DNA from: Bdellovibrionota bacterium FG-1
GTDB taxonomy: Bacteria; Bdellovibrionota; UBA1018
Reading direction: 5' to 3'
Length of the DNA stretch: 64,000 nt
Assembly: GCA_051382295.1 (NCBI GenBank)
Contig: JBBCAW010000021.1
Span: 83,085 to 147,084 of the forward strand
The notes beneath the pieces are model-generated. The model was not told where the DNA came from and ran no database searches. It saw nothing but the letters and a program-made list of their open reading frames with translations. Position numbers and translations under genes: made by a program. This document shows positions 36,176 to 57,406 of this stretch, piece by piece. Positions within the stretch are counted from its first letter, which is position 1. Every line of letters begins with the position of its first letter.

Positions 36176-36276
36176 GTGTACCGACTTGAAAAACTTGCAT
36201 GATGCCTTCAGGTATAATGTAAGCATCACATAATTTAGTTATATAAAAATTTAGGGATTAATCGAGAAAGGCCCAC

Positions 36277-37165: not shown

Positions 37166-37250
37166 TGGTGCTCGCGACAAGACTCGAACTTGTACGCCTT
37201 ACGGCACTGGTTCCTAAGACCAGCGTGTCTACCAATTCCACCACGCGAGC
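37166..37250 (-). tRNA. tRNA-Leu(TAG)
   Basis: 85 nt, GCTCGCG/CGCGAGC acceptor, anticodon arm CTGGT-CTTAGGA-ACCAG, long variable arm, CCA. Confidence 0.97.
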
Positions 37251-37320
37251 ACTGTTTGCTTTACTAAACCATTTCGGTGATTTGCGCAACATTTGCCTTT
37301 TCTAATGCCTCCTTTTTTGG

Positions 37321-38637
37321 TCATTTTTTGACCACTGTAGCTGTACTGTAGCTGAGAGTCCGGCCTAAGCTCGGGTCATTACTGGGATGCTGGCACATTT
37401 TTTCCTTCAAGCGCTCAACATCCACGGACCCTCCGTAGTGTTGCCGATTGACCGCAGGATCATGCCCCAGTACCTGACTCGCCTCTTCCACAGAGAAACC
37501 ACTCCTCTGTTTTGCGTGGGCGCTGAACGACCGCCGCAGATCATAAGGGATGAAACGCAGCCGATCAGCCATGACCCCTTCTCTGTCCGCAGTCCACATC
37601 CCTGCAGCCTTGAGAAGTCCCCTCCAGCACTCCCTGATGGAAGTGACCCGTTGCCATGGCACCCCAGTCAACCCGCCCTTTTTCCGGTCTTTGGTCACGA
37701 AGACAAAGTTAGCGGGATGTGGAGTCGGATCGCCCTTAACAAAACCAACGGACACAACCCGTGGCAGACTATTTAAAATCAGCAGAGCTGTGTCATTGAG
37801 ATATACTTCGCGGTCCTTGCCCCACTTCGGCTTCCAGCCAAGTCCGTGCTTGGTGGGACACCTTGGCTTTGACCTGAGTCGAACCCAACGATCAACCACG
37901 TCAGTCCACTCCAGGTGAATCAGCTCCCCAGGCCGCATGCCGGTCGCATACATCAAGAGCACGAATGCCTTGACGTTGAATCCGCTTTTGGCTGTATACG
38001 CGGTGGAAACCAGTTTCTGAATCTCCTCCGATGAAAACACCACGGCCCGCGCCTTTTCCTGCGGCTTCACCTTGATGGGCTCGATCTCATCTGCTGGATT
38101 GGAAACCAGCTCCTTTCGCTTCTTGAACCAGCGAAACACCTTCTTCACCAACTTGAGGTAGTTTTGGGCGGTAACGGCTGAGATCTCCCTCTTAGCAATC
38201 CTTTCTTGAAGGTGATCCCTGAACGCCAAAACATGGGCCTCCTTGAGTCGCCTAAAGTTGGACTCACCCGCCAACTTTGAAAGCTTCCGGAAACAAGTGC
38301 GAATCATGGCATCCTCTCCATTCTTCGTGTTGCCGGTTTTCTCAAAGCCGGTCTTTTCCAGATACCTATCCACCGCTAAATCAATGGTGAGGTGCCCACC
38401 GGGCCCTGCCCGGCGCTGCATCTTCTCCATCTCAGTGTCCGTAAAAAAACCCCGGATCAGGTCAGCCTCTTTGAGCTTGGCATTTCGCAGTGCCTCCTTC
38501 TCTGACTTAGCCACCGAAGCCTGAATGAGACTACCGTCCGGTAAAGGGTATTTCCAATACCAGCGATCGCAGTCCTTTCTATAATAGACATGAACCTCCG
38601 GAATATATTCCATCGGCACGTCAATTTTATTGAGCAT
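37321..38637 (-). CDS. Tyrosine integrase
   Basis: ATGMRPGE, YDLRR, LGH, HY; N-terminal arm-binding-like and SAM-like domains. Confidence 0.92.
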   Translation of the reverse strand: MLNKIDVPMEYIPEVHVYYRKDCDRWYWKYPLPDGSLIQASVAKSEKEALRNAKLKEADLIRGFFTDTEMEKMQRRAGPGGHLTIDLAVDRYLEKTGFEKTGNTKNGEDAMIRTCFRKLSKLAGESNFRRLKEAHVLAFRDHLQERIAKREISAVTAQNYLKLVKKVFRWFKKRKELVSNPADEIEPIKVKPQEKARAVVFSSEEIQKLVSTAYTAKSGFNVKAFVLLMYATGMRPGELIHLEWTDVVDRWVRLRSKPRCPTKHGLGWKPKWGKDREVYLNDTALLILNSLPRVVSVGFVKGDPTPHPANFVFVTKDRKKGGLTGVPWQRVTSIRECWRGLLKAAGMWTADREGVMADRLRFIPYDLRRSFSAHAKQRSGFSVEEASQVLGHDPAVNRQHYGGSVDVERLKEKMCQHPSNDPSLGRTLSYSTATVVKK

Positions 38638-38649: not shown

Positions 38650-38976
38650 TTACGAGAGATCTCGGAAGCCTTCGACCCGAGCATTGTCGAGGAAGGTATC
38701 GAGATCCTTCTTGAGAAAAATCAGCCCCTCTTTGCTGAACTTGAGGAACGTCAACTTGCGGGAACGGGTTGCATGGTAATGGATGCTCTCGCGTGAGCAT
38801 CTGCAGTACGCCGCAGCCTCATTCTCGTTGAAGACGTGGTGCCTCAAGACCAGCTGTAAAACCATGAATTTGTCAAAGAGCGATAGGAGCTTGGAAAGCG
38901 GACCTTCTTCGGGCTCCTGCATCACGGTGATACCTTGGAATACGGGGTCAATTCGAGTCAAGTCATCATTGCTCAT
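38650..38976 (-). CDS. Excisionase-like HTH protein
   Basis: FNENEAAAYCRCSRESIHY...FLKKDLDTFL, directly upstream of int. Confidence 0.7.
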   Translation of the reverse strand: MSNDDLTRIDPVFQGITVMQEPEEGPLSKLLSLFDKFMVLQLVLRHHVFNENEAAAYCRCSRESIHYHATRSRKLTFLKFSKEGLIFLKKDLDTFLDNARVEGFRDLS

Positions 38977-39422: not shown

Positions 39423-40241
39423 TTAAATAATTCCTTTTTTTTCAACGTTTTTGGGAAACTCAAGCCAAGTGCGACCATCGAGCGTTCGACCGCCCTTCGC
39501 TCCTTTTGGATTGGCCTTATTTTTAATAGTTGGGTCGAGCGGGTCTGGGTTGTTGCTTTTTTTTCCCCATTGTTTAAATAAAAACGGAACCCCAGCCAAA
39601 ACGCACTGATAGCGGATATTTTTGACCCAGGCTGGATCCATTGGCCGTGCCTTTGGACCTGATTCACCGCCGACGATCACCCAGTTGATGCCGTTCAGAT
39701 TAAGGTCGGGCAGTGGTCCGAGCAGTGGTTCCAGCGACAGGAACTTGACCTGGGCGCCAGTCAAACGGAGGTGATCGATCCGACTGGTGTAATCGTTGTT
39801 TTCAACGGAGACGCCCATCCAGAGGTTTTTGGGCCAGGGGAGCATAGGACTGAGTGCGGTCAGGCGTTCTTGGCGCTTCGTGAGAACCTGGTAGGTGTGC
39901 CGTGGCGTCTCGATCACTGTCTTGAATACCCCTTGAATGAACTCCAACGGTACATCCTTGTGAAAAAGGTCCGACATCGAATTCACGAAGATGCGTCGTG
40001 GCTTCCGCCAGTGCTTTGGTCTTTCAAGTAGGTCGCGATGGAGAGTCAGCTTGAATCCGTTACTGTAACGACAGCTATCGATGTGCATTCTCCCCTTTTC
40101 GCAACTGCCAATCTCCATCCGCTTATTGTGGATCGCCTGCTTTTCCGCATAACAGTTTTTGCAACCATCGCTGACTTTGTCGCAACCGGTATGGGGATTC
40201 CAACTTAGGTCGGTCCATTCGATTGAAGTTCTTCCAGACAT
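39423..40241 (-). CDS. DUF5131 / phage Gp37-Gp68 family radical-SAM-like protein
   Basis: IEWTD.SWNP.TGC.KVS.GC.NCYA, FVNSMSDLFH, SLEPLLGP, WVIVGGESG, FKQWG. Confidence 0.92.
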   Translation of the reverse strand: MSGRTSIEWTDLSWNPHTGCDKVSDGCKNCYAEKQAIHNKRMEIGSCEKGRMHIDSCRYSNGFKLTLHRDLLERPKHWRKPRRIFVNSMSDLFHKDVPLEFIQGVFKTVIETPRHTYQVLTKRQERLTALSPMLPWPKNLWMGVSVENNDYTSRIDHLRLTGAQVKFLSLEPLLGPLPDLNLNGINWVIVGGESGPKARPMDPAWVKNIRYQCVLAGVPFLFKQWGKKSNNPDPLDPTIKNKANPKGAKGGRTLDGRTWLEFPKNVEKKGII

Positions 40242-40390
40242 TAATATTCCTCCTCATCACCCGAGAGCGGCCCGGGTGGCATTAGGTCAAGCCCCGTTCG
40301 CCGGGGCGTACAATTTATGATCAGATCAGGGCTTTTTGAATTCGATGCACCTCCTTAAAATTGATGGTCGGAAAAAGTTGCCGCTTTTGC

Positions 40391-42526
40391 TTATTCATCG
40401 TTGTCCTCTTCCATGATGTTCGGCGCGGTGTCAGCGCTACAGATGTTAAACGCCGAATCTTTCAGAAGGCGCTCAAGACTGTCGGCCTTGCCGTCCTTGT
40501 TCCAGCACCACGGGTGACTCCGGTTCACGTCTACTTTTGCATTTAATACAGGGTAAAACTCTCGAAGAGCTTGTTCGAGGAGTTGTTTAGCGCGATCGCT
40601 TATTTGAATAATTAGGTCTTCCGGACATTCGATGAGAACAGCGTCGTGAAGCTGAAAAATGAGCTTAACGTCAGTCTCACGAAACTCCTGATCAAGGAGG
40701 ATGAGCGCCCGCTTGAATACTGAGGCCGCCGATCCTTGGATAGGCGTGTTACGTAAGAAGTTTCGAACCCAAGGGGAAATACCCGCGTTTTTAGGAATAT
40801 ACCGACGCAACCCGGTTACCGTGGTTGCAAATCCGCGATTGAGACCAACGCACTCCTCCTCGTCAAGCCTCGCCTTGATAACGGGGAACATGTCCATGAA
40901 TCGTTCACGCTGCTTTCGCGCCTCAGATTCAGAGATTCCAAACTTCAGTGAAATGGATCTCGGCTGCATATTATAAATCACCGCGAGTACGAAAATCTTC
41001 ATATTGTCGCGGAGGTCTTTTCTCTGGTTCTTGAATTCTGTTGGATCAAGATTGATTTCTTCCGCAGTCAGTTGTTCCTTGTAGAATTTCTGGGCTATAA
41101 CGGCATAAACGTCGCCTTGATTGTAAGCGCTGATTAGGACCGGGTCATTGAACTCAGCAGCCACGACCCCAATCTCCATCTGGGAATAGTCGAGTTCAAA
41201 AATCGCCATTTCGGGGGGGGCCGTTACCACCGGACGAAGGTTTCTGTCGATCCCACCCAGATTTGGGTTTTTGCAGGAGTTTCTGCTCGTGGCTGTTGCG
41301 AGTTGAAGATGAGCTGGGTGGTGTCGTCCGTCTTTCCCCCGGAGTGCCCCGTAGATCCACTCACTAGTGAGGATACGCGACATTGCTCGGTACCTAAGCA
41401 AAACGCCCACCGCAGGATGCAGGCTGCTGTGCCCATAAAGTATTTTATCGGTCAACACGATTCGTCCAGCGCGGGTTTTCTCTTTGAAATGATGAATCAG
41501 ATTTAGATTTTGAAGTGCTCGGGCAATGTGATCGGGGTTGTCTGGAGAATCCAATCCGTGAGTTTTCAAATTGATGGCGTAGTGATCGCTGGCCCGAGTG
41601 CAGGCTTTGGTTAGCTTCTCAAGGCTATCTTTGGTGATGTGTACGCCGGTCCATTCCATTCGTGCGTTAGCGGGAATGAAGGGAAACTCGATCTTATGGA
41701 GGTGGCTAGAGATTCCTGATTTTTCGATATCAGGTTGTTGGGCATGATAAAGTCGAAGCGTCCATTCCGATGGGGCAGCACTGGAGTCAATGAGACCTTT
41801 TGGCATGGGTACCCCAGGGGGGAGCGGCGATTGAGCTTCAGGTTGTACGCCGCCGTAGGGGAACCCCAACTTGTAATGGGCACATTGTCCTGCCAGCGAG
41901 AGAGCATGGTCCCGCTTTTCAGCCATGAGTCGCTTAGCTGCGATATGCTCAGGGCTGTCGTCCGCTGGACCTGACACGCGGGCATGGAAGAGCCCCAAGG
42001 TCTGTGCAGCGGCCGCAATATGGGTGTCGTAGAATGAGTGGAGGACGGGGTCGATGCCACAACTCCAGAGGGCAAACAGAGCCTTCTTGAAGTCGTGGAA
42101 CACGAACTTAACCCGGAGGTTCAGAAGTGCCTTGGTGGCTTCGATTCCGGCGGGATTCCGTAGGTCGATCACATGGCGATGGAGAATGCCGGGTCCATCG
42201 GGATTGAGGGGGTCATCGACCCAAACGCAGAGGGAGACAAACAGAGGGCGGATGCCGCGAATGTCTCGCCAGAGGGGGCCATTCTTGAGTCTGAAGGCAG
42301 CTCTTTCATGTTGCACCTCAACATGGACCCCAATTGCTCGAACAGGAAGTCCGCTGAGTTTGCGGATCAGAGCCTCGGCCGCCTCTTCGCCACCGGCGAC
42401 CTGGATTTCGCCTGGTTGAGGGAGAGGGATCCCGACAGCGATGTCGAGCTGGTTTTTGGGATCTGAGTCGTAGTGGTCCAGTTCCTGAAGGCGTTGTGGC
42501 CAACGGCCGAGGAGGTTGATGGTCAT
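40391..42526 (-). CDS. Family A DNA polymerase with degenerate 3'-5' exonuclease domain
   Basis: TATSRNSCKNPNL, motif A DYSQME, motif B RDNMKIFVLAVIY, NTPIQGSAA, motif C LHDAV. Confidence 0.9.
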   Translation of the reverse strand: MTINLLGRWPQRLQELDHYDSDPKNQLDIAVGIPLPQPGEIQVAGGEEAAEALIRKLSGLPVRAIGVHVEVQHERAAFRLKNGPLWRDIRGIRPLFVSLCVWVDDPLNPDGPGILHRHVIDLRNPAGIEATKALLNLRVKFVFHDFKKALFALWSCGIDPVLHSFYDTHIAAAAQTLGLFHARVSGPADDSPEHIAAKRLMAEKRDHALSLAGQCAHYKLGFPYGGVQPEAQSPLPPGVPMPKGLIDSSAAPSEWTLRLYHAQQPDIEKSGISSHLHKIEFPFIPANARMEWTGVHITKDSLEKLTKACTRASDHYAINLKTHGLDSPDNPDHIARALQNLNLIHHFKEKTRAGRIVLTDKILYGHSSLHPAVGVLLRYRAMSRILTSEWIYGALRGKDGRHHPAHLQLATATSRNSCKNPNLGGIDRNLRPVVTAPPEMAIFELDYSQMEIGVVAAEFNDPVLISAYNQGDVYAVIAQKFYKEQLTAEEINLDPTEFKNQRKDLRDNMKIFVLAVIYNMQPRSISLKFGISESEARKQRERFMDMFPVIKARLDEEECVGLNRGFATTVTGLRRYIPKNAGISPWVRNFLRNTPIQGSAASVFKRALILLDQEFRETDVKLIFQLHDAVLIECPEDLIIQISDRAKQLLEQALREFYPVLNAKVDVNRSHPWCWNKDGKADSLERLLKDSAFNICSADTAPNIMEEDNDE

Positions 42527-44466
42527 TGGTTGACCTCCTCCATGGTGGTTGCGGTCTCGACTGTCCCAATTTCCCTTAAAGAATAATTAGTATTAAAGGG
42601 ATTTTGGGACACCTGACTGTTTTGCTTCAGCCATCTTGCTGCGGTCGAGGAGGAAATATTCAGCTTCCTGGCCGCCTTCCTCATGGAAAAGCCGCCAAAC
42701 ATCAGCGCTCGAAGTTCTTCGATCTGCTTAAGTCTCTGAGTAATACGTGGCCTCAGCAGCCCAAACTCCTGATAGGCGCGTTCAATGGTCGGAAGTTCGA
42801 TAACCGGGCCCACTTCCAGGGTGAAGTCAGCCATTTGGAAAAAGATAATTTCGCGGGCATGAGTATAAAAACGACACCGTCCAACGGCTTGGAGAATTGC
42901 GTCAATCTCGAGAACACGATGATGAATACTTACGTCTTTGGCGAGATCGCTATACCGATGTTTGTGATCAATGGTCGGTATGCGATTTTGACGACTATCG
43001 TAGTGAAAATCGACCGCGATCTGATCGCACTCAGCAATGTTACCTTGGGTGGATTCACGCAAGGCAGATGCTGGAAGATTAAAAGAGTTCAGGCAATAAC
43101 AGGCATCGTAGTCGGTAAAAATATTAATACCAATTACGGCGTAGTGGATGATCGGAACAATGTTGGAGTTGGGTTTCCTTAGGTCGTCAGTGACCTCAGT
43201 TGGAAAACTAACATCAAATCCAAGCTGTTTAAGTGTTTTTCTGAGATAATTAGCGCATGCCACCTTAAACTTCTTTTGGGAGACAAGGAGTGTGCTCTTG
43301 CCTGATTTGATGTTGAAGGCAATCTTGGCAGCGATGAAGTCAAGAATTCGATGCATGTTGCTCCGGAAATACTTTGCTGCACCCGAGCGGAATTTTAGAT
43401 TAAATATTCGCGTGTCAGTGTGTCTAAACTGAAGTGATTCGAATGGAGATTCAAGGTCAGGCAACTGAAGCTGCTTCTTTACGAAGTCCTTCGGCAGGTT
43501 GGCGGCGAGCACCAGGATGTCGAACCGATCAAAGTTTTGGCGTACTACAAAGTTGATATTCCCGTACTTGTCCTTCCAGCGATCTTGCTGTTTGCTTTGT
43601 TGGAAGAGGGATACGAGATGAGCAATATTCTCAAAGTTATGACCGAATTCATCAACCCCATGCCGTTGAATTTCTAGACCAACCTGATTCAGACCTGATG
43701 GAAAAATCCAGCCAGTCATTCGAAGTGATCGGGTGTCGGCACGGAGCAACGTACTAAGGTTTTGCACCCACACGGCCTTATCGGCATCAAAAGTCGGATA
43801 TTCTTCCTCCGGCTGTGGAAGCGTCCTTAATGCGTTAATAAAGATTTCAATAGTATTGGCAGAAATAGTGATCGGCTTTAATGTTTTCGTTACGCCACCT
43901 TCATCGAGTATCAAAAGTACCTTTTTTGGCTTCAAAATATCAATGATCTGGCTAAGTATCGTCGGAGCATTGTTCAGTCGCTGATCGGTACAAAGGATGA
44001 ATTGACGATCCTTGATCTTTTCTTCAAGAGGGGGCCACCAGGTGCATTCCGAGTCTTTCTTTGGACACTTCGAACACAAAGTTTCCCTCGCGAGCGACGA
44101 GCAACCACGAGTTTCTAAAAACTCCCATTGCTCGTTGAGAGGACCGCAAAGTCTCGTCGGCCGAGCGCGCAATACAAAATATTCGATTGGAAGAGCGGCG
44201 GCCTGAAGACTGTGCAGGCGTTCAGTGATGATCGACCACGCACAGGCAACGTAGATGACAAGGTCGTAAATCCGGTAAGTCTCGGGATCCAAGATCACCT
44301 TGTCTGCAACTGCCGACTTTCCCACACCAATGGGTAAACGAAGAAGAAGCCGGATGAACCGTTGCAATTGCTGCAGGATCCAGGCGGCGGTGAGGGTGGC
44401 CCGAAACTTTTTCAGGCCACCTTGATCGACAATATTATTGGATTTGTTGTCGCTCACCGTCATCAC
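42523..44466 (-). CDS. SF2 helicase-like protein with Cys cluster and C-terminal HTH
   Basis: LPIGVGKS (Walker A), LILDEG (Walker B), QAVGRCR (motif VI), C...C...CSKC...C cluster, SMRKAARKLNISSSTAARW. Confidence 0.7.
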   Translation of the reverse strand: MMTVSDNKSNNIVDQGGLKKFRATLTAAWILQQLQRFIRLLLRLPIGVGKSAVADKVILDPETYRIYDLVIYVACAWSIITERLHSLQAAALPIEYFVLRARPTRLCGPLNEQWEFLETRGCSSLARETLCSKCPKKDSECTWWPPLEEKIKDRQFILCTDQRLNNAPTILSQIIDILKPKKVLLILDEGGVTKTLKPITISANTIEIFINALRTLPQPEEEYPTFDADKAVWVQNLSTLLRADTRSLRMTGWIFPSGLNQVGLEIQRHGVDEFGHNFENIAHLVSLFQQSKQQDRWKDKYGNINFVVRQNFDRFDILVLAANLPKDFVKKQLQLPDLESPFESLQFRHTDTRIFNLKFRSGAAKYFRSNMHRILDFIAAKIAFNIKSGKSTLLVSQKKFKVACANYLRKTLKQLGFDVSFPTEVTDDLRKPNSNIVPIIHYAVIGINIFTDYDACYCLNSFNLPASALRESTQGNIAECDQIAVDFHYDSRQNRIPTIDHKHRYSDLAKDVSIHHRVLEIDAILQAVGRCRFYTHAREIIFFQMADFTLEVGPVIELPTIERAYQEFGLLRPRITQRLKQIEELRALMFGGFSMRKAARKLNISSSTAARWLKQNSQVSQNPFNTNYSLREIGTVETATTMEEVNQ

Positions 44467-45054
44467 CTATCCAAGATCCAAGCCACGGAGTTCAAGCTGC
44501 GCCTTGATCGATTCCAATGAGGAAAGCTCAATTGCGGTGTACCGAGGGTAGATCGATTTCAGAGTCTCTTCGAGGTTTTCATTCTGCTCTAAGAACGCCG
44601 CGACTTGCTGGAGTCCAACGCTGGCTGTCTTGACGTTGGAAATCAGCTTCGTGGTAAAGTCATAGTTGTCACCACGGGAAATCTCGATGAGCTTCTGGTC
44701 AATTTTCGGATCATCGAGATAAGCGAGAAGCTGAGGTAAAAGCTTCCGGGGCGCCATCTCCTTGGAAATGCGCAGGATGGCAATACCGTTCTGGCTCAGA
44801 CTATAGACGGGGAGGAGGACACTAGTGGACGCCTTCTTTCCGGCGATGCAGAAGGGGCAAGTTTTTGGATCGCCCAGGCAATGGAAGTGACCGCGTAAAT
44901 TTGGGTCATCCGAAAAATGGAGCAAAGCCTCCACGCCGTCGTCGGTAAAGGCTTTGACGAGTTCGGCGTTATTATTTTTGAACCAGAGTTCCTGAATACC
45001 TCCTTCCTTTTGATCGGGGATTGATGATTGAATAAAACTTCTGATACGAGCCAT
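44467..45054 (-). CDS. Putative ssDNA-binding protein (gp32-like Zn motif)
   Basis: HFHCLGDPKTCPFC, first gene of the replication operon, GAAAGGAG RBS. Confidence 0.5.
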   Translation of the reverse strand: MARIRSFIQSSIPDQKEGGIQELWFKNNNAELVKAFTDDGVEALLHFSDDPNLRGHFHCLGDPKTCPFCIAGKKASTSVLLPVYSLSQNGIAILRISKEMAPRKLLPQLLAYLDDPKIDQKLIEISRGDNYDFTTKLISNVKTASVGLQQVAAFLEQNENLEETLKSIYPRYTAIELSSLESIKAQLELRGLDLG

Positions 45055-45385
45055 AATATGGCTCCTTTCTTGATTATGCCCACCTCTAATTGACGTGGGC
45101 TGGGTTAATTTTGAATGAATAATTGATATTTAAATATTCAAAACAAAGGTGTCCACTGCCCCGCGAGTCATTCAAAAAAATTGATCGAAGAGTCATCGAA
45201 AACTGGCCGGAGAATATACCTCTCCCCGGCCAGTTTTAGTGGCATAAGAACGTATTCAAAATTTCGGTATGATATTGTGCGAATTGTCGAGGTGGGATAT
45301 GGTGAAGCCGGTCAGGTCTTCATGACAGATCATCAGAGTGCCCTGGGTGGCTGCCTGGGGCACTCTTTCACCTTGGTGCGCTACT

Positions 45386-46276
45386 TTATTTGGCCCCCTT
45401 TCTTTGAAAGGCAAGGAGTGCTTGCAGAACCTGATGCAGTGGTTCCACAAAGTCTCGATTCCCTTTGCATGCCGCGATGATTTCGGCGAGTCGTCCGTTG
45501 TCTGTACCGTCATTAATAGTTTGTAACTCTTTCGAATCCTCCTCTGGAAAAAGGCTTGCAGTGAGCTGAAAAGCAATGAACTCAGCCTTACTTGAAATAG
45601 AGTACTGGATGGCGCGATCACTGGGGGTGATTTTAAAATTTACTCGCGCGTCTCGTGCGTTCAAAAGTTTTAAAAAAAGATCAACCGAAGTTTTGTCGTT
45701 GAGAAACTCAAGTGAGATTTGATCATAAGGCACATCTACGAAGGTAATTCGGTCCTTAGGTGCTGTCGGCAGATTCACTCCTGGCAACATGCGTTCAAAA
45801 AATTCTCGTCGAGCACTTACTAGGTCGCCACCCTCCGTTGTGGGACGCCAAGCTAAAAGGTATGCCGCAGCCTTAAGAAAACGGTCGTGCCACATGGTGC
45901 CATAAGAGCTTAAGAAAACATCAAACGATAACGGATGACCACCCTCATCCAGCCTGGTATTTGCCGCTAGATGCCGAAGGACACCATGAAATGGAGCATC
46001 ATGTTGATCTGCTTTGATCTGGCGTTCTTGGGTAGCTAACGCGAGAAGGGCGTTAATTTCTTGATCGGAGCACTGAGAAAGTTCCTGCAATACGGGATAG
46101 AATTTTGGGAAACGGTGGGGCTGTAATGGTGCGCGCGCGCCGGAAAGCTGCAGTGCAAGAGTTGGTTGAGAAATCCCAAGCTTGGCCGCTATCACTGCCT
46201 GAGTAGCTGGAGTTTTTTTGATGATCCGGCGCAGAGCTTTGGCATAACTCAGGCTGGAGCGTTCCGGGGAGTTCAT
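45386..46276 (-). CDS. XRE-family HTH protein
   Basis: TQAVIAAKLGISQPTLALQLSG. Confidence 0.7.
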   Translation of the reverse strand: MNSPERSSLSYAKALRRIIKKTPATQAVIAAKLGISQPTLALQLSGARAPLQPHRFPKFYPVLQELSQCSDQEINALLALATQERQIKADQHDAPFHGVLRHLAANTRLDEGGHPLSFDVFLSSYGTMWHDRFLKAAAYLLAWRPTTEGGDLVSARREFFERMLPGVNLPTAPKDRITFVDVPYDQISLEFLNDKTSVDLFLKLLNARDARVNFKITPSDRAIQYSISSKAEFIAFQLTASLFPEEDSKELQTINDGTDNGRLAEIIAACKGNRDFVEPLHQVLQALLAFQRKGAK

Positions 46277-49245: not shown

Positions 49246-50145
49246 TCACATACTCAGTTTTTCCACGCCGGCCTCCAGGTCCGCTAGCCGTTTGCGAACA
49301 TAGTGCCGTGAGGTCGTTTCAAGCGATGAGTGCCCCAATAAGTTTTGGAGCGCGACAAGATCGCCTGGATTTTCTTCCAAGAAATTCATCGCGAAGTGGT
49401 GCCGTAGTAGGTGGTCGTGGGTCTTCACCCCCACCAGCGCTCCAAGTTTTCGGACGAGCTTGTAAATCCCATCGGTCGTCAGCGGCCCCCGTTCACCGTT
49501 AAAAACCAGCCCTTGACCGAACTCATCACCGAGATGGGCTCGAAGTTGGATTCTTGCCTGACGAGCCAAAGGCACCGTTCGCGAGGATGATCCCTTCACG
49601 TGCTCACCACGAATCTCAAGGATGCCGCGATTCACACTGAGCGAGATATCTTCATGCCTAAGGCCTGCTACTTCTGAAACCCGTAATCCGGAGAGCATCA
49701 GGTAGACAATCGCTTTATCCCGTGGTGAAGCGGTCAGTTCCACGTTCCTCATAAAACGTCGAAACTCCTCTTGTGGCAGGGTCTTGGCACCCAATCTGGT
49801 CATTGGGAGCTCCGGCACCGCTTGAATCGATTCCGATCGCTCCCTAGTGACCACGCCGCTTTGGACTGCCCAAGCGACGTAGGCTTTGAGGAAAACTAAC
49901 CGGTGATTGATCGTGGTCGTGGCTTTCCCAGCTTTGAGCTGTTCACTCTTCCAGTCCCGAATATCAAGGCCGGCGACCCGGGTAAGGTCGAACGGTTCGC
50001 CGGTACGAGAGGATATGATGGCGCTAATTGACCGATGGGCCGAGGCGTAAGAATCGATCGTCTGATCCTTCCTGCCACGAGCTTTTAGAAAACCCAGATA
50101 TTCCTGAATTCGGCGCAGTTCTGCCTCCGTCGTATTGCTGTGCAT
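49246..50145 (-). CDS. XerC/D-like tyrosine recombinase (probable resolvase)
   Basis: GLRVSE, VKG, HLLRH, LGHSSL, HY; no arm-binding domain. Confidence 0.9.
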   Translation of the reverse strand: MHSNTTEAELRRIQEYLGFLKARGRKDQTIDSYASAHRSISAIISSRTGEPFDLTRVAGLDIRDWKSEQLKAGKATTTINHRLVFLKAYVAWAVQSGVVTRERSESIQAVPELPMTRLGAKTLPQEEFRRFMRNVELTASPRDKAIVYLMLSGLRVSEVAGLRHEDISLSVNRGILEIRGEHVKGSSSRTVPLARQARIQLRAHLGDEFGQGLVFNGERGPLTTDGIYKLVRKLGALVGVKTHDHLLRHHFAMNFLEENPGDLVALQNLLGHSSLETTSRHYVRKRLADLEAGVEKLSM

Positions 50146-50233: not shown

Positions 50234-50614
50234 TTATCCGCCCAATCCCCTAACGCGGCTCCAAGGCGTGTCGGCTCGAATCACTCGGAGCCCAGGCTGT
50301 GAGCGTGCCGCATGGTCGACCACTTCCGAGTTATGATCCCGGATGATCAGCCGCTCCTCGCTCATCAAGCCCGTCATCCCCGGCAGATGAGATCGGTAGG
50401 CCCAATAGATTTCTTCAACGGCCTCTGTGTCGATTCTCAGTTCCCCATTCTGAAACGCACTCAGGAAAGCCCTGGGCCCTCGCAAGAGTAAGTACACGAA
50501 TCGGTATGCCTCGCCCAACTCCGGCGACTCTGGCATTTCAAGTAGTTCGTCTCGAAGAATCGGAAACAGCGTTTCAGCTCTTCGTCGAATCAGGTCTCTT
50601 GTCGATGGATCCAT
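50234..50614 (-). CDS. Hypothetical protein
   Basis: AAGGAG RBS, 126 aa. Confidence 0.6.
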   Translation of the reverse strand: MDPSTRDLIRRRAETLFPILRDELLEMPESPELGEAYRFVYLLLRGPRAFLSAFQNGELRIDTEAVEEIYWAYRSHLPGMTGLMSEERLIIRDHNSEVVDHAARSQPGLRVIRADTPWSRVRGLGG

Positions 50615-50628
50615 AGGTTTTCTCCTTT

Positions 50629-50865
50629 TTATGTTTCAAAATACGAGGCTGAACCCCTCGTGTTGTTTGTTCTGGTTGGCTGTGCCGGTGGCACGTTCAT
50701 GGGCCCGTTATTTGGGCAGTTTACGAGTGCCTCGGGGAGTGCACCCGCCATCTTCAGAATTGACCCCACGCTGATCAAAAGGGAAGAGCACGCAGCGGCC
50801 ACATAGCCGACGAGTATTAATCGGTCGGCCACGCTCATAGCTTCGAATTGTTCGTTGCGTGTCAT
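50629..50865 (-). CDS. Small membrane protein
   Basis: ATGA overlap with the DUF2958 gene; one TM. Confidence 0.5.
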   Translation of the reverse strand: MTRNEQFEAMSVADRLILVGYVAAACSSLLISVGSILKMAGALPEALVNCPNNGPMNVPPAQPTRTNNTRGSASYFET

Positions 50866-51173
50866 CCCTGTGACCGCCTTCCGCAGAGACGTTGCACTTC
50901 GCTGAGGCGCATGGGCTTCCAATGAAGGTCGCGTTCGATCCCGAGGCCGTGGACTTTAACGGACTCGAGCTCGGTGAGGCTGAAATAACCCAGCTCCCAC
51001 TCATGACCATCGACCGCTCCAAAAAATAAGCGCTCATCGGGGTCGTACTCAGTCGGATACCAAGTCCAACTTGAGAACGGGTGAAAGAATTTTGTTAGAA
51101 CAAAAGGGTCGTGGCCGTCAGTTTCTCTAGGTTTTTGAAATGCGCGTGCAAGCGCATTGGTCATCAACTTCAT
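50862..51173 (-). CDS. DUF2958 family protein
   Basis: KFFHP...WTWYPTEYD...FFG...ELGYFSLTEL...IERDLHW. Confidence 0.85.
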   Translation of the reverse strand: MKLMTNALARAFQKPRETDGHDPFVLTKFFHPFSSWTWYPTEYDPDERLFFGAVDGHEWELGYFSLTELESVKVHGLGIERDLHWKPMRLSEVQRLCGRRSQG

Positions 51174-51323
51174 TTTGCATCTCCTGGTTGTGGGTTGAGT
51201 GAAAAAATAAAGGGACGACGGCGCTGGTTGATTCCAACGTGGTCGTCCCTCTGGTGGGTGGTTTGCTATAAAAAGACGGAATACTTCGAGTGAGTTGACT
51301 TGAAATTGAGAGGCGGTCTTCGG

Positions 51324-52052
51324 TTACCCGAGAATCAGTTGGACCAATTTGTCTCGAACGTCTCGGCCTTTCACCAATAATTTGTCAGGCAAGGACCCGA
51401 TGTCGACCCTGGCGTTATTCTGGATCAGGTACTTCACGAACTCGGGGGAGTCTGTTGCGAGCATCAGAGGCGTTTTCCCAAGGCCATCCGAATCATTTAC
51501 CGGCGCGCCGGCTTCGATGAGTACCTCTGCTACCTCCCAGTGATTCTCGCGCAAAGCCCAGTGCAGGGCTTGGTGCCCAAACGCTGACCGCGCTCCCAGG
51601 TTGACCCCATAGCCCACGAGCATTGACGCCAACTCAAACCGGTCCTGAGCACTTCCCCTATCCATTTGGCCAAGTGAAAGCCTGCCCGGCGCGCAGAAGG
51701 TCAGGTCACGAAGGATGGCCTTTTTTTCCTCCTCTTCGCGAAAGTACGCAACCAAGCGAGGGCTTACCTCCATAATCGCAAGTTCGATTGGTAGTGCTCG
51801 ATCACCGTAGCGCCCACAGATTGGCTGGCTAATGTCGAAACCGTCATTAACCAAAATCTTGGCCGCTCCCAATTGATTACCACCGAGAACCGCATTTCCT
51901 AACTCCTGGTTGGTGCTTTGGGTGGCTTGCTTGGCTTGTCCCAGATTCAGGCCCAACCTTCCGAGTCCGACCGCGCCACCGAGCAACGCCCCACCCTTCG
52001 CGATGGAGCCAATGAAGGCGCGGCGGTTTTGATATTTCTTGTCCATCGTCAT
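51324..52052 (-). CDS. Ankyrin-repeat protein with Tat-like signal
   Basis: NRRAFIG; GHQALHWA...LIEAGAPVN, GKTPLMLA. Confidence 0.75.
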   Translation of the reverse strand: MTMDKKYQNRRAFIGSIAKGGALLGGAVGLGRLGLNLGQAKQATQSTNQELGNAVLGGNQLGAAKILVNDGFDISQPICGRYGDRALPIELAIMEVSPRLVAYFREEEEKKAILRDLTFCAPGRLSLGQMDRGSAQDRFELASMLVGYGVNLGARSAFGHQALHWALRENHWEVAEVLIEAGAPVNDSDGLGKTPLMLATDSPEFVKYLIQNNARVDIGSLPDKLLVKGRDVRDKLVQLILG

Positions 52053-52062
52053 TCTCCTTTGG

Positions 52063-52284
52063 TTATTTATAACTACGATTCACGGCGACCACTGTAACCG
52101 GCATATCGCAGGTATTTCTGTACAAATAAGGTCCATTTAGCTTTTCAGTCAGGCCCATAAAACAGCCAGTTGACTGGTCAAAAATCTCTGCGAAAGTCAC
52201 GACCAATCCTGGAATTCTTGCGATCTTTTGAATCGTCGCGCATCCGGATCCCGCAAAAATCAGGATGATGGTTAGGTATTTCAT
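52063..52284 (-). CDS. Small lipoprotein
   Basis: AAGGAGG RBS, GSGC lipobox-like. Confidence 0.55.
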   Translation of the reverse strand: MKYLTIILIFAGSGCATIQKIARIPGLVVTFAEIFDQSTGCFMGLTEKLNGPYLYRNTCDMPVTVVAVNRSYK

Positions 52285-52722
52285 GAGACCTCCTTTTAGT
52301 TTTTAAACATAGGGACAAAGCGGGTGAAAGCTGCTGATACAGCGAGTCCAGGCACCCAAAGTAACCCGGTCGACGATAGCCACCCCCGTCCGAAGGTGAG
52401 GTACGTTCCACTGACAACGAGCGCGAACGCTGAAATATAGAGTAGGCAAAAATCCGAGTGGGCCTTGGTATAAAGCGACAATCAAATTTGGATGATCGTC
52501 AGGCTACGCGAAGGTCGGTTGGGTAGATGTAGTACGCCACGGGGTGCCTTACGTCTGTCGTGTTGGCCACCGGTATCGGGAGGGGGTGCCCTCATTAATT
52601 TACTCATACCAGGAAAAGCTCGAATCTTGCCCATTGCGTTATATTGACGCGAGATGTGATTGCCGTGAGTTACGAATGTAACTTATGCGGACAGAGCTCA
52701 GACCTTTATGGTCCCAGAAGGG

Positions 52723-53496
52723 TTACAGATTTTTGAGAAATTGGAGCTTGAGTTGGAGAAAAACCTGCCCCATACGACTGATCCGTGAGTCGCTTGAACC
52801 GAGATCAAGGATCCCGCCTCCTTCTGCCTGGGGAATATAAAACTGATAGTTTACCCCCGCAGAAAGGGAGAGGTTAGCGAAGAGCGGAAAATCAAGGGTC
52901 AGACCGGGCACAACGCCTGGTCGAAGAAAGTTGGTCACGCCCATTTCAGTGGAATACATATTGAGGTAGGTAAGAATCACGTCCACATTAAAGGTGAGGC
53001 GAGCCAACCAAACCTGGATCGAGAAGCCCAGGGGTATTGGCTTCCATGTCGCGCCAAAAGCATGCGTTCGATCGCCGGGTGCAATAATAAGTGTGTCAGG
53101 AATCCAGATAAAAGGGTGCACTCGCCACGCGTCCACGGATTGAGCGAGGTGGCCGTATTTTTCCGGGACCTTTTCGATATTATCTGCGATCATCTTCCGA
53201 TCGACCACCGCCTCCAGGCTTAGCTTCAGGCCAAAGTAGGAATACCCATACTGCCCAAAGCTTCCGTTTATGCTTTGAAGGGATGGTCCCACTCCGATTT
53301 CAACCGGGATTGGTGTGTCAGCCTTTGCGCTTAGAGTGCCGAGGAGGGCTATGGATGTAAGTGCGCCATGAATGAAACGAAATAAATATTTGGGTCCCCT
53401 ATAATTTCCGAACTCAGATTGGCGCGACCAAAAAGATGATGGGGTAGGAATGCCCTTTTTCTTAGATTTTTGATTTGTACTCTGGTGCTCTTTCAC
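52723..53496 (-). CDS. Putative outer-membrane beta-barrel protein
   Basis: Signal-like segment, amphipathic beta strands. Confidence 0.5.
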   Translation of the reverse strand: MKEHQSTNQKSKKKGIPTPSSFWSRQSEFGNYRGPKYLFRFIHGALTSIALLGTLSAKADTPIPVEIGVGPSLQSINGSFGQYGYSYFGLKLSLEAVVDRKMIADNIEKVPEKYGHLAQSVDAWRVHPFIWIPDTLIIAPGDRTHAFGATWKPIPLGFSIQVWLARLTFNVDVILTYLNMYSTEMGVTNFLRPGVVPGLTLDFPLFANLSLSAGVNYQFYIPQAEGGGILDLGSSDSRISRMGQVFLQLKLQFLKNL

Positions 53497-53520
53497 GCTG
53501 TGGCCGCTCGAGTGAAAACA

Positions 53521-54186
53521 TTAAAAGAGCCCAAATGAAACCCCACCCAAAACATTAAAACTTGGAAGGAACTCTGAATTTGTACCAGCATCTGCAGAAC
53601 TCTCGACAAATATTGAGAGGTGGTCCCAAAACCCCTGGAACCCGACCCCAATTCCTCCAACCACGGAACCGATATCAGGAGGCCCTGCAGTGATGCAGTT
53701 TGCATTAAAATTTTTCTCGCAGGTCGGACTTATGTTTGCGTACCCAGCCGAAGCCTTGCCATAGACTCCGAAATGTTCGGTCCCCCATAGGTATCTGCGA
53801 AAAAGGAGGGCTGCTGCCCAACCCATATAAACAGCACCCCTCTTACAATCTGACGAACTGGATGAGCCGGTAGGACAGGATATATTTGTGTCTGGGATGT
53901 GCTCTGACCCGATATAGCCCAGACCCTGAATGCCAACATACGAAACTTCACCAAAACGAATTCTGAAACTGCCACCGAGAGCCCCGGGAGAATAGGTGCG
54001 CGAAAATTCACCACCAAAAAATAAATCAAATGCGAGCTTCGGTAATTCTAAAATTGGGCTAATCCCCGCCGTCGCGGGATTCGCGGCCTTTTTTTCATCA
54101 GATAGAGAAGAGGAAGTTAACCCGATATTCAGGAGGAACATCCCTATAATGGTAAGGGCGATGCTATTGAGGGGTGGATGGCTCAT
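53521..54186 (-). CDS. Putative outer-membrane beta-barrel protein
   Basis: Signal peptide, Gly/aromatic strands, C-terminal GGVSFGLF. Confidence 0.6.
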   Translation of the reverse strand: MSHPPLNSIALTIIGMFLLNIGLTSSSLSDEKKAANPATAGISPILELPKLAFDLFFGGEFSRTYSPGALGGSFRIRFGEVSYVGIQGLGYIGSEHIPDTNISCPTGSSSSSDCKRGAVYMGWAAALLFRRYLWGTEHFGVYGKASAGYANISPTCEKNFNANCITAGPPDIGSVVGGIGVGFQGFWDHLSIFVESSADAGTNSEFLPSFNVLGGVSFGLF

Positions 54187-55202
54187 AAGTTGTCTACCAG
54201 TTTATTGATGAAATCCTTTTTAATGGCGGCAGCAATAGCGTTCTTGGCAGCTTCAATCGCACTTTCGTCATCCTGGCCCGAACCGGTGTCTTCCATTATA
54301 AATGCGGTCACGGTGTCATTGCCATCGAGGATGGTTACGTTCACTAGCCCTGTGGCTTTTACAATGCCTGCCGAAGCAAGTAAGCGGTCCTTGCGTACTC
54401 GAACCTCCATTATTACTTTTAGTGAGAGGCCGGCCTTTGGATCAACTCGGAGACCTGATTGATTCACTTCGGCAATTATATGGTTAGTTACCTTAGGATC
54501 TCCCGTCGTTTGAACTGAAATGAGGACTTTATGAAGTTCTTGATTGAGAGCCTGAAGTACTCGGCTAATGGTCATTCCCCGTAATTCGTTGACGGACTTC
54601 GTGCCGTCAGGTCTCACGCTATCGTAGAGATCCGCTAAACCTTCGGTTCTCTGAAGTTCAATCGCCGCTTTTTTGAAAAATTGTATTCGTTTCAGCGATT
54701 TTTCTGATTGCAGCGCGGCATCATAATGGGCACTAGCTAGCTTGCCGGAATTGACTAGCGTCGGCGTAGTCCTTTCAGCAAACTTTAGCCGATCAAGAAC
54801 TACCAAAGCGTGTGCTACTAACGTCTCATTGTCAAAATCCGCCTGTTTTACGTCAATACCGTCCACATTGTTGACTGAAGCCTCAACGGAATCAGAACGG
54901 GAATAGGTTTTGATAATTCTCTCAAACGCTTTTTTTCCACCCTCGAATTCCTGAGTTGCAGTTTTCTCCGAGTGAGACCTCGTTTTTATGTTGGCGCGAA
55001 TTGCTTTGGCCAGCTCAGCGCGGGCCTGATCGGTGGCATTTTGAATGGCTCGCGTCTCATTGGTATCTTGCACGGCTCCTAAACCCATAAAAAAACTCCC
55101 GGGCGGGTATTTTTCGCGGATTTCAGAGGCGTTCGGTCCGGCGGCGAATGCATGGAGCTGAATTATAGTTACAGCGAAAAACAGAAGAATGAATTGTGCC
55201 AC
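54183..55202 (-). CDS. LPP20-like exported protein
   Basis: FFMGLG...ATDQARAELAKAI...HALVVLD. Confidence 0.65.
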   Translation of the reverse strand: MAQFILLFFAVTIIQLHAFAAGPNASEIREKYPPGSFFMGLGAVQDTNETRAIQNATDQARAELAKAIRANIKTRSHSEKTATQEFEGGKKAFERIIKTYSRSDSVEASVNNVDGIDVKQADFDNETLVAHALVVLDRLKFAERTTPTLVNSGKLASAHYDAALQSEKSLKRIQFFKKAAIELQRTEGLADLYDSVRPDGTKSVNELRGMTISRVLQALNQELHKVLISVQTTGDPKVTNHIIAEVNQSGLRVDPKAGLSLKVIMEVRVRKDRLLASAGIVKATGLVNVTILDGNDTVTAFIMEDTGSGQDDESAIEAAKNAIAAAIKKDFINKLVDNL

Positions 55203-55206
55203 AGCA

Positions 55207-56876: not shown

Positions 56877-57028
56877 AGCGCAAACCCTTCCGTGTTTAGA
56901 CGACTGCTTTGATTTTCGGTATTCAGCCGTAAACCTTTAGTTGATTAACAATGTGGCGAGATTGGTTTTAGGTCTGATCAAAATACAAAACAGTGAATCA
57001 ACAGAAAGAAACCAAGTCGAATAGTGTT

Positions 57029-57352: not shown

Positions 57353-57406
57353 GGTGGTCCTCCTATTGTCGGTCCAGGTGTTAATATTTTTCAGTTGATT
57401 CTATTT

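Follow-up and report, generated by a model that had tools for sequence, protein, structure and literature searches.

Three coupled genes in the 64,000-nt stretch of DNA analysed here (the window), encoding a gp32-like SSB, an XPD/DinG-like helicase (Hel) and a family A DNA polymerase (PolA), probably constitute the replication module of an island of about 28.1 kb integrated in a tRNA-Leu gene. This reading rests on the three proteins themselves, since a gp32-like SSB, an XPD/DinG helicase and a PolA with an intact polymerase site would make up a minimal replisome. It also rests on the coupling of the three genes, on the att borders that enclose ParAB, on the recurrence of the trio close to recombinases, on its position in the slot of piPolB and on its absence from the plasmid and phage records searched. 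PolA-SSB-helicase modules of Bacillota provide a precedent (PMC10061031).

Borders and gene content of the island

Both ends of the island were located. The integration target is an intact tRNA-Leu gene (anticodon TAG, 37166..37250, minus strand), predicted by ARAGORN; the plus strand begins here with TGGTGC, hence the 3′ CCA end of the tRNA lies at 37166 and its 5′ end at 37250. The first border, attL (37212..37290), is a 79-nt direct repeat consisting of the 5′ half of the tRNA-Leu, from the anticodon loop, and 40 nt upstream. We found the second copy, attR, on a separate contig (C12:400-478), which is linked to the contig of the window via a 1.2-kb bridging contig (C97), with exact 127-nt overlaps at the joins between the C21 end, C97 and the C12 start. 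The two copies are identical at 77 of the 79 nt, and the similarity ends at either flank of the repeat. From 63572 the island runs on to the contig end at 64000 and then continues through C97 and C12:1-399 to attR. The stretch beyond the window is 1.3 kb and its sole content is a RES/Xre toxin-antitoxin pair on C97, made of an Xre-like antitoxin of 149 aa and a RES toxin of 226 aa (RES match 1.7e-7).

At one end of the island, next to attL, there are a tyrosine integrase, Int (438 aa, 37321..38637, minus strand; Pfam Phage_integrase 1.1e-12, PHROG 1 integrase 1e-38), and a small HTH protein of 108 aa (38650..38976, minus strand). We call the latter Xis-like, a weak assignment because its HTH_17 match (E 0.0011) is under the curated cut-off and the basis is the position beside Int. 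They are followed by an accessory DUF5131 protein (272 aa, 39423..40241, minus strand; Pfam 4.8e-93, PADLOC PDC-M41B/M30B), for which blastp gave no homologue across 17 related loci, so that it is not conserved with the trio. ParB (62019-62894, Pfam ParB_N 3.5e-16) and ParA (62834-63571, Pfam AAA_31 1.4e-30), both on the minus strand, are inside the borders, the right end of the island being situated past them. An earlier note on this DNA, made from the sequence, had described a partitioned integrative element with the trio followed by DUF5131, Xis and Int; the two att copies, the position of ParAB and the gene order, all on the minus strand, bear this out.

The trio is flanked on the same strand by Xis/Int and by a regulatory pair. 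Immediately upstream of it there is an intergenic region (45055..45385), a candidate operator or origin judging from its sequence, which holds a hairpin with 15-nt arms (45199-45237) and four copies of ATTCAAAA within 153 nt; a search for an iteron-type origin found none. The next gene encodes a probable regulator of 296 aa with an N-terminal HTH (45386..46276, minus strand; PHROG repressor 1e-4, weak HTH_ParB match 0.01), which lies near HTH_3 clusters in the Atlas (0.90). It is followed by an ImmA/IrrE-type M78 metallopeptidase (46500-47144, minus strand; Pfam Peptidase_M78 6e-7) and an overlapping Xre-type HTH gene (47119-47577, minus strand; HTH_31 5e-6), a capP/capH-like pair according to PADLOC and likely an induction switch.

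The rest of the island comprises a second tyrosine recombinase, XerC/D-like (299 aa, 49246..50145, minus strand; Pfam Phage_integrase 2.4e-25 and SAM_1), and a region of cargo and unknowns (50234..61919) with an ankyrin protein, an Xre HTH, a GNAT, an IS with a DDE transposase (58603-60438) and five unannotated ORFs (52723-56876, with weak LPP20/LpoB-like matches). We scanned the island ORFs of 100 aa or more with Pfam, PHROGs and PADLOC; about a dozen island ORFs stay unannotated. As the earlier note had reported, the scan of this set turned up no gene for a primase, capsid, terminase, relaxase or T4SS, nor was there any match to a coupling protein, a mobilisation gene or a B-family polymerase such as piPolB. 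Portal and tail genes were likewise without a PHROG or Pfam structural match in the island, where unannotated ORFs remain, and no Rep gene was recognised across its whole length. The rest of the element was thus inspected, as that note had suggested, and the full 28.1 kb is without a recognisable primase or virion gene.

The proteins of the trio

The three genes are tightly coupled: the start of Hel abuts the stop of the SSB gene with a 0-nt gap, and PolA overlaps Hel by 4 nt.

The SSB (p195, 195 aa, 44467..45054, minus strand) was identified as a gp32-like OB-fold protein through fold comparison, not through sequence, and the SSB label given by the earlier note is upheld on this basis. Its AF2 model has a pLDDT of 85.5, and the top six Foldseek matches are all the gp32 core of T4 or RB69; with VIA we obtained a Z of 8.6 for 2a1k (rmsd 4.2, 155 residues) and of 8.5 for 1gpc (151 residues), against 5.8 or less for other OB folds. 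The motif H46-x12-C59-x6-C66-x2-C69 is conserved in 15 sequences; the zinc ligands of gp32 are H-x12-C-x9-C-x2-C. No Pfam or PHROG match was found for p195, and a profile search of PDB sequences gave no gp32. The predicted complex of PolA and SSB was weakly supported, with a median score of 0.34 (0.34, 0.00 and 0.41 in the single runs) with a contact agreement between runs of 0%; the best of 3 controls scored 0.00 and the partner pLDDT was at least 71.

Hel (647 aa, 42523..44466, minus strand) contains the SF2 motifs GxGK(S/T), DE and Q..GR.R that belong to the two RecA-like motor domains of XPD/DinG-like helicases, in which G44, G46 and K47 (Walker A), D185 and E186 (Walker B) and R527/R529 (motif VI) are invariant in 48 sequences. 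Also invariant in these sequences are C104, C128, C131 and C138, which correspond to the DinG/XPD-like Cys cluster of the earlier note; from the sequence, this four-Cys insert, located after Walker A and before Walker B, appears to be an FeS-type cluster. With the AF2 model (pLDDT 91.4), nearly all of the 35 highest-ranking Foldseek matches were XPD, DinG and CasDinG structures (lowest E 7e-12), and a 5′-3′ unwinding is inferred by analogy with this family. The terminal HTH that had been noted coincides with a sub-threshold HTH_23 match (6.1e-5, residues 573-615), the only Pfam match of Hel; above threshold there was no sequence-level match in Pfam, PHROG or PDB sequences. We know of no XPD/DinG helicase with a replicative role. 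The characterised ones have roles in repair and in CRISPR type IV (PMC11981726).

PolA (711 aa, 40391..42526, minus strand) combines a polymerase domain with an N-terminal exo-like domain whose active site is degenerate, and is without a 5′ nuclease domain. It matches Pfam DNA_pol_A over residues 331-667 with an E of 2.7e-44 (152 bits, curated cut-off 34.3) and the Klenow fragment with an E of 2.7e-29. We aligned it to Klenow and to a family of 13 members. The catalytic Asp residues, D446 in motif A and D628 in motif C, are retained; D446, Q449 and E451 of motif A are invariant in the 13-member alignment, and motif B contains R506, K510, L514 and Y518, with L514 at the position of Klenow F762. 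D446, D628, K510 and Y518 are invariant or almost so in the family. After Y518 the window copy has N and its relatives have G. The ExoI, ExoII and ExoIII residues are lost in the window copy, in which an active 3′-5′ proofreading site (ExoI D-x-E, ExoIII Y-x3-D) is absent: ExoI reads HVE instead of D-T/F-E and ExoIII reads SSAAPS instead of Y(A/S/C)A(E/A)DA in the relatives (L009, L018, L014, L007 and L020). The retained catalytic Asp, the missing 5′ nuclease, the loss of exonuclease residues, the Leu and the YN had been pointed out in the earlier note. It had missed that motif C is H627-D628-A629 in 13/13 members, hence HDA and not HDE; in Klenow mutants the change from HDE to HDA reportedly lowers the activity. 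The exonuclease loss is common to the entire Vibrio clade.

In the phylogeny that the earlier note had proposed as a check, PolA falls in a distinct clade, apart from the sampled phage PolAs and from cellular Pol I. Since the island also lacks recognisable primase and virion genes, neither of the checkable findings that the note had set against its own reading, i.e. such genes outside the window or a grouping with ordinary prophage polA, was obtained.

Recurrence of the trio

At E 1e-30 or better, the Hel family has 258 representatives among 1.84 billion proteins, and no match to Hel was present in 72,556 plasmid records, in 50,697 phage records or in a pattern scan of IMG/VR. The trio recurs at 15-17 loci in five phyla, usually with an adjoining recombinase, the hosts belonging to Pseudomonadota, Thermodesulfobacteriota, Planctomycetota, Verrucomicrobiota and Magnetococcales. 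Precisely, Hel is present at 17/17 relative loci, with the SSB upstream at 16/17 and PolA directly downstream at 15/17; the remaining two (L008 and L013) have Hel and SSB without PolA. A tyrosine or serine recombinase is within about 8 kb of the trio at 10 of the 17 loci. At the other loci, conservation with the trio does not extend to ParAB or to the Xre/M78 pair. No B-family polymerase was found among the 253 neighbour ORFs of the 17 loci, and piPolB was seen only in an adjacent tandem element of one genome (G033).

Eight loci from Vibrio, Aliivibrio and Shewanella were compared, and all eight contain the trio. The genes for Int, DUF2787, WYL and orphans are each found in three to six of them, and the RM, ABC-3C, DarT and OLD-like cargo varies. 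The core of gammaproteobacterial pipolins is made of an SXT-type Int, DUF2787, WYL and orphans (PMC11551731); in Vibrionaceae, then, the trio occupies the slot of piPolB in the pipolin backbone. One V. splendidus genome carries a true piPolB element and a trio island in tandem, whose backbones pair in six proteins at 31-85% identity, with piPolB as the polymerase module of one and SSB-Hel-PolA as that of the other.

Discussion

If the trio is the replication module of the island, a DNA-damage-type signal would act via the Xre/M78 pair, which is ImmR/ImmA-like, and the response would de-repress the minus-strand gene string from 47.6 kb to 37.3 kb. Xis and Int would recombine the two 79-nt repeats, with the excision of the island as a circle. 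The C-terminal HTH would bring the XPD/DinG-like helicase, whose family translocates 5′ to 3′, to the DNA for unwinding, the SSB would coat the single strands, the exonuclease-dead PolA would copy the SSB-coated strands, and ParAB would segregate the island circles. Under this same premise, the primer would likely be supplied by a primase of the host, by a transcript or by a nick; that PolA and SSB prime de novo, by analogy with CcPol-MP of SCC, is possible but rather doubtful. The compound proposal that PolA and SSB prime de novo and the FeS/HTH helicase is an origin-binding replicative helicase seems to us unlikely.

Some observations speak against a replication role, namely the HDA of motif C, the two of 17 loci missing PolA, the unconserved ParAB and Xre/M78 genes and the lack of an iteron-type origin. 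To these can be added the wealth of defence genes on the trio islands, which leaves room for a defence role of the trio, and the fact that we know of no replicative helicase of the XPD/DinG type.

The trio could instead be a defence or genome-conflict cassette, in which Hel senses or unwinds foreign or damaged DNA and PolA and SSB act there. We consider this quite unlikely. The islands with the trio are in fact defence islands (RM, GmrSD, OLD/AAA_15, ABC-3C and DarT genes), DinG-type helicases serve type IV CRISPR (PMC11981726), Rice mentions a function of this kind as possible for PolA-SSB modules (PMC10061031) and the pipolin authors see pipolins as defence platforms (PMC11551731). In Vibrionaceae, however, the trio is a conserved backbone next to Int and the defence cargo is what varies; moreover, the trio replaces piPolB, which is the hallmark polymerase and not a cargo slot. 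PolA scores 1e-37 on the RTasPolA model of PADLOC, but this match reflects a generic PolA similarity, and Hel and p195 are without a PADLOC match.

Still less probable is a module for establishment, which would convert incoming single-stranded island DNA, entered by conjugative mobilisation or natural transformation, to duplex for the integrase, or repair the gaps of excision and integration. The content of SSB and polymerase would fit this function, and Vibrionaceae are naturally competent. Such a role has been proposed for the PolA-SSB-helicase modules of SCC (PMC10061031). Nevertheless, ParAB inside the island argue for a maintained episome, the island ORFs scanned gave no relaxase or mobilisation gene, and second-strand synthesis needs no helicase with a dsDNA-type HTH.

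Finally, a decaying, non-working module, suggested by the exonuclease residues gone from the window copy, its private G to N change after Y518 and the odd residues of motifs B and C, is very improbable, given that the three ORFs are intact and coupled, that neither the catalytic residues of the polymerase nor the motifs of the helicase vary between phyla, that the exonuclease loss is shared by the whole Vibrio clade, and that L514 and HDA are family-wide and thus not due to decay of this copy.

Islands with their own DNA polymerase are few (pipolins, casposons, SCC) and are central to the question by what means islands that are neither conjugative nor viral persist and disseminate defence genes. 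The trio defines a further group of them in at least five phyla, and its XPD/DinG-type helicase with an FeS-type Cys cluster and its gp32-type SSB are parts not known from such a role. The Vibrio genome with a pipolin and a trio island in tandem amounts to a natural swap experiment and, as several carriers of the trio are cultured Vibrionaceae, replication, priming and the role of the helicase are directly testable. If PolA and SSB were self-priming and Hel the origin-binding replicative helicase, this would be the third independently evolved self-priming island replisome, after piPolB and CcPol-MP; the trio and piPolB would be exchangeable within one and the same backbone, and Hel would be the first XPD/DinG-type helicase in replication.

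Comparison with known systems

SCCmec is said to have a CcPol-MP-Cch2 operon (Bebel 2020, reportedly). In SCC and other Bacillota MGEs, PolA-SSB-helicase operons close to recombinases have been proposed to act as primase/replication modules (PMC10061031). With these modules in print, and with the Vibrionaceae trio in a pipolin backbone, the suggestion of the earlier note that this is a new class of element is not supported, since comparable polymerase-bearing islands are already published. As in SCC and Bacillota islands, an A-family polymerase with catalytic Asp, a small OB-fold ssDNA binder and a helicase are in a single operon, located by a site-specific recombinase in an integrative island with conflict genes and without a canonical primase. 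The likeness is judged at the operon level, the order being SSB-helicase-Pol in the trio and Pol-SSB-helicase in SCC. The trio SSB is a 195-aa gp32-type OB fold with a putative zinc site, and SCC has the small MP in this place. For the helicase, the trio uses an SF2 enzyme of the XPD/DinG type that combines an HTH with an FeS-type cluster, unlike the MCM-like or SaPI Rep-related ones of SCC (PMC10061031). The recombinases of the trio are mostly of the tyrosine type, and its hosts are Gram-negative phyla, whereas the examples found by Rice are in Bacillota only (PMC10061031).

Like pipolins, the island is tRNA-integrated, with direct repeats, its own DNA polymerase and defence cargo, and without recognisable transfer or virion genes (PMC11551731), and the Vibrionaceae/Shewanella trio islands have the pipolin core in identical order. 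The hallmark piPolB is absent, with the SSB-helicase-PolA trio instead, and the window's island has a different integrase and lacks the WYL, DUF2787 and orphan genes of that core. Islands called 'piPolB-less, pipolin-like islands' are noted in the pipolin paper, whose searched text names no family A polymerase (PMC11551731). The trio PolA is a candidate polymerase for such islands.

TV-Pols are also A-superfamily polymerases on mobile elements, helicase-linked and with a proposed priming activity, but they are minimal and highly divergent, with D5-like AAA+ helicases (PMC2579912); here, a full Klenow-type PolA (Pfam E 3e-44) is linked to an SF2 helicase. With T4-type replisomes and XPD/DinG repair helicases the folds agree (gp32 core Z 8.6; XPD/DinG E 7e-12). 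Neither part belongs to these families at the sequence level, and the trio is set in an integrative island rather than in a phage or at a chromosomal repair locus; compared with the XPD/DinG helicases, the C-terminal HTH of Hel is an added part.

Organisation of the trio operon

Six ORFs follow one another on the minus strand of the window, from 45054 down to 37321. Precisely, the candidate SSB gene p195 (44467-45054), without a match in Pfam, has its stop adjoining the start of the helicase gene Hel (42523-44466), which in turn overlaps the family A polymerase gene PolA (40391-42526) by 4 nt. This trio is followed by a DUF5131 gene (39423-40241; Pfam E 4.8e-93), a Xis-like gene for a 108-aa HTH protein (38650-38976) and the integrase gene Int (37321-38637; Pfam Phage_integrase 1.1e-12, PHROGs integrase 1e-38). 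The 'Xis' assignment is putative, its basis being HTH_17 at an E of 0.0011, which is below threshold. As regards domain matches, PolA was hit by Pfam DNA_pol_A (E 2.7e-44) and by PHROGs DNA polymerase (6e-55), and the sole Pfam match of Hel was a sub-threshold, C-terminal HTH_23 (6.1e-5).

Upstream of p195 an origin search detected no iterons; it found a hairpin with 15-nt arms and four copies of ATTCAAAA. These are four of the 19 sites in the window (whole-window chance expectation 6.25) and lie within 153 nt (45109-45261) by the hairpin. A promoter scan stayed at chance level, with 11 found and 10.8 expected.

Polymerase

The Klenow fragment matched PolA residues 250-661 (phmmer, E 2.7e-29). 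Its N-terminal half has a domain of the 3'-5' exonuclease type, and a 5' nuclease domain is absent. We rejected membership of the TV-Pol group, PolA being a full-length Klenow-type enzyme.

We aligned the 13 polymerases that adjoin Hel relatives. Invariant residues were D446, Q449 and E451 in motif A, the last at the Klenow E710 position, the ribose steric gate, as well as R506, K510 and L514 (Klenow F762 position) in motif B, in which Y518 is nearly invariant and is followed by N in the window PolA and by G in the relatives. Motif C reads H627-D628-A629 in 13/13. The Leu at the F762 position and the HDA are hence family traits and not peculiar to the window copy. ExoI (D-T/F-E) and ExoIII (Y(A/S/C)A(E/A)DA) are kept in five relatives (L009, L018, L014, L007 and L020), the window PolA has HVE and SSAAPS at these positions, and the Vibrio clade is likewise degenerate. 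The earlier note had described kept catalytic Asp residues, a missing 5' nuclease, lost exonuclease acidic residues, Leu for F762 and YN for YG, and the Klenow and family alignments confirm these details. Rice (PMC10061031) names a 'last thumb helix one turn shorter' as a feature; for PolA, a gap of just 2 residues against Klenow showed in one pairwise alignment.

Relatives of PolA in a word search numbered 26 (identity 32-46%, E no worse than 1e-91), beyond which scores fall to cellular Pol I at 25-29% identity (E about 1e-29). In the phage collection 1,610 of 50,697 records matched, every one at <30% identity and none spanning 80% of PolA. In a FastTree phylogeny of 69 rows, with SH-like support only and with long branches flagged, the 13 trio PolAs and the 26 word-search proteins formed a single branch (support 95), separate from 16 Pol I sequences and from the six phage PolAs sampled, so that the grouping with ordinary phage polA considered in the earlier note did not appear in this sample.

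Two further polymerases were observed in this part of the tree. One, of 1,068 aa (P0179), belongs to the trio clade and is fused to a PF02086 domain (D12-class adenine methyltransferase). The other is a second integrase-adjacent polymerase of the genome that holds the window (contig C46, 6437-10880; L033), in the order Int (444 aa), 139-aa ORF, 578-aa PolA-like protein (DNA_pol_A 1.4e-17) and a coupled 195-aa ORF unlike p195 (hhalign probability 0.1). No helicase lies between the last two genes, the contig ending 0.6 kb further, and the PolA-like protein is a long-branch sister to the trio clade (FastTree).

Helicase and SSB candidate

Among 5.8 billion proteins searched by words, Hel had three relatives, and an exhaustive profile search gave 542 representatives at E <=0.001, 258 of which at E <=1e-30. 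Across an alignment of 48 sequences, Walker A (G44, G46, K47), Walker B (D185, E186), R527 and R529 of motif VI and four Cys (C104, C128, C131, C138) are invariant, and Q523 of motif VI nearly so; the HTH occupies the C-terminal residues 570-615. An AF2 model (pLDDT 91.4) was used with Foldseek, and nearly all of the top 35 matches were XPD, DinG or CasDinG (best E 7e-12). PDB sequences searched with phmmer gave no match to Hel at E up to 1. With an XPD/DinG fold in the model and no match among PDB sequences, Hel stands for a branch of this group that is divergent and has no name. Searching the plasmid and phage collections by tblastn we found nothing, and of 23 pattern matches in IMG/VR none was confirmed.

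Following the HTH, Hel ends in a disordered tail (window 42523-42620) with a QNPFN..Y-like motif that is also present in several relatives; a form like SQNPFN..Y / N..YKRKSGT recurs in one subclade (P0022, P0024, P0027, P0029, P0038). The tail could serve as a peptide that docks a partner.

At the sequence level p195 had no match in Pfam, PHROGs, a word search (itself only) or a PDB profile search (one chance match, E 1.3). Its homologues share H46-x12-C59-x6-C66-x2-C69, and the gp32 zinc site is H-x12-C-x9-C-x2-C. With the AF2 model (pLDDT 85.5), the six best Foldseek matches were T4/RB69 gp32 (probability 0.93-0.98); VIA-align gave Z 8.6 / 8.5 over 155 / 151 residues, the next being HIN and RPA OB folds at Z <=5.8. 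We read p195 as a predicted gp32-type zinc OB-fold ssDNA-binding protein.

Borders and contents of the island

The target is a tRNA-Leu(TAG) gene (37166-37250, minus strand), next to which Int lies on the 5' side. When 37140-37340 was compared with the entire assembly by short-word BLAST, we found 37212-37290 repeated on a further contig (C12:400-478) with 77/79 nt identical, the similarity ending at both edges. Starting at the anticodon loop, the repeat comprises the rest of the tRNA towards its 5' end and a further 40 nt upstream. Among tRNA-integrating elements it is unusual for the element to bring in the 5' half of the target together with the region upstream. The window ends with its contig, whose last 127 nt are identical to one end of a 1,169-nt contig (C97), and the other end of C97 is the first 127 nt of C12. 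By these overlaps the island, some 28.1 kb long, extends from 37212 past the window end and across C97 to C12:478. In an empty-site search that covered 30 other genomes from the same family and order, one matched the left flank, over just 204 nt and with 66% identity.

C97 codes for an Xre-like protein of 149 aa and for a protein with a RES domain (1.7e-7), and ordinary host genes lie beyond attR. Therefore neither primase nor virion genes are found in the stretch of the island beyond the window, where the earlier note had allowed for them. Within the window the island also carries ParB and ParA, a 296-aa HTH protein (p296; HTH_3-type neighbours at 0.90 and nothing else in an Atlas look-up), a second, XerC-like recombinase, an ankyrin protein, an IS, a GNAT gene and an ImmA/ImmR-like pair, namely an M78 peptidase overlapping an Xre HTH (46500-47577). 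This pair heads the string of putative replication and excision genes and matched the PADLOC capP/capH models (1.2e-8 and 5.8e-4); CapP and CapH regulate CBASS operons in response to DNA damage.

At 52723-56876, five unannotated ORFs in a row on the minus strand (257, 221, 339, 218 and 338 aa) have no more than faint LPP20/LpoB-like matches; as cargo of the island, they may form a cluster of lipoprotein genes. The IS, with a 611-aa DDE_Tnp_1 transposase (58603-60438), stands between perfect 122-nt direct repeats (58374-58495 and 60627-60748), far longer than a usual target-site duplication, and the unannotated ORFs on either side (57656-58606 and 60527-61204) may be related.

On the other side of the tRNA gene, 7.5 kb downstream, a 61-nt copy (90% identical) of its 3' half occurs at 29572-29632. 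In the interval 29633-37165 there are genes for a histidine kinase and an SBP_bac_5 protein, a truncated HD-domain ORF and a 56-aa ParA N-terminal fragment (36005-36175; 50% identity with the island ParA over 44 aa). The interval resembles what is left of another insertion, older than the island. The 3'-half and 5'-half repeats overlap in the anticodon loop (37212-37220). We rejected a single 36-kb element because an intact tRNA lies between the 29572-29632 and C12:400-478 copies, which fits two separate insertions, one per side of the gene.

Recurrence of the trio

Scanning a single genome of each species by pattern, we obtained 17 Hel loci and one fragment, in Vibrio, Aliivibrio, Shewanella, Desulfobacterales/Thermodesulfobacteriota, Planctomycetaceae/Gemmataceae, Verrucomicrobiota and Magnetococcales. 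A p195 homologue is upstream of Hel in 16/17 and PolA directly after it in 15/17, with PolA truncated by a transposase in L006 and both genes split in L021. Across the 17 loci the trio is not accompanied by a conserved DUF5131 gene, and for the window island's Int and Xis there are no close counterparts, two weak Int matches apart.

Among the 253 neighbouring ORFs, the sole primase-like match was a DnaG zinc-ribbon ORF in L006, past two transposases, and none was a virion gene. Ten of the 17 loci have a recombinase of the tyrosine or serine type no more than about 8 kb away (L016 by separate analysis). The cargo includes RM, GmrSD, OLD/AAA_15, ABC-3C, DarT and similar genes. Two loci, L008 and L013, have SSB and Hel without PolA, so the helicase-SSB pair can work with other partners; in L013 an integrase directly follows Hel, and phage-type AAA_24, Gp157 and DUF932 genes are upstream.

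Pipolin backbone and proposed role

We compared the backbones of eight Vibrio/Aliivibrio/Shewanella loci. The trio is common to all eight and the cargo differs, and the families F11, F7, F4, F10, WYL, DUF2787, two orphans and Int each occur in three to six loci, with their order kept. The gammaproteobacterial pipolin core, in a passage of PMC11551731, consists of piPolB, IntSXT, IntP2, DUF2787, a WYL protein and orphans, and 'piPolB-less, pipolin-like islands' are noted in the same source.

In one Vibrio splendidus genome (G033, contig C8; L038 and L039, with L016) a pipolin and a trio island stand in tandem. The first has a true piPolB (PF03175, 1.3e-10), whereas the directly adjoining island has SSB-Hel-PolA. 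Six backbone pairs link them: Int (38%), orphans (31% and 39%), DUF2787 (85%), WYL (32%) and a 135-aa protein (84%). The identity of about 85% of DUF2787 and the 135-aa protein points to a recent exchange between the two backbones. The displacement of piPolB by the trio on the same backbone is the strongest argument for the trio as the island's own DNA-synthesis module. A role of the trio in defence is possible, as is one in establishing incoming DNA. Neither Hel nor p195 was matched by PADLOC.

For the trio as DNA-synthesis module, the layout on one strand, from the regulator pair through SSB-helicase-polymerase to Xis-Int, suggests induced excision; the excised circle would be replicated by the trio and the replicated circles segregated by ParAB.

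Comparison with known systems

According to PMC10061031, CcPol-MP, the A-family polymerase of SCC islands, primes only with its OB-fold partner. It is a precedent for the start of chains by PolA and an OB-fold partner; here, a PolA-p195 complex was predicted weakly (median 0.34; runs 0.34/0.00/0.41, sharing no contacts; best of three controls 0.00). The 'new class' of element proposed in the earlier note did not hold, since integrative islands that carry a polymerase are already known, as are operons of PolA, SSB and helicase next to recombinase genes. In the texts reached by a full-text literature search, we found no description of a module of gp32-like SSB, XPD/DinG-like helicase and PolA on integrative islands. 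The kind being known and the module undescribed, we therefore file this combination as a new variation on polymerase-bearing islands.
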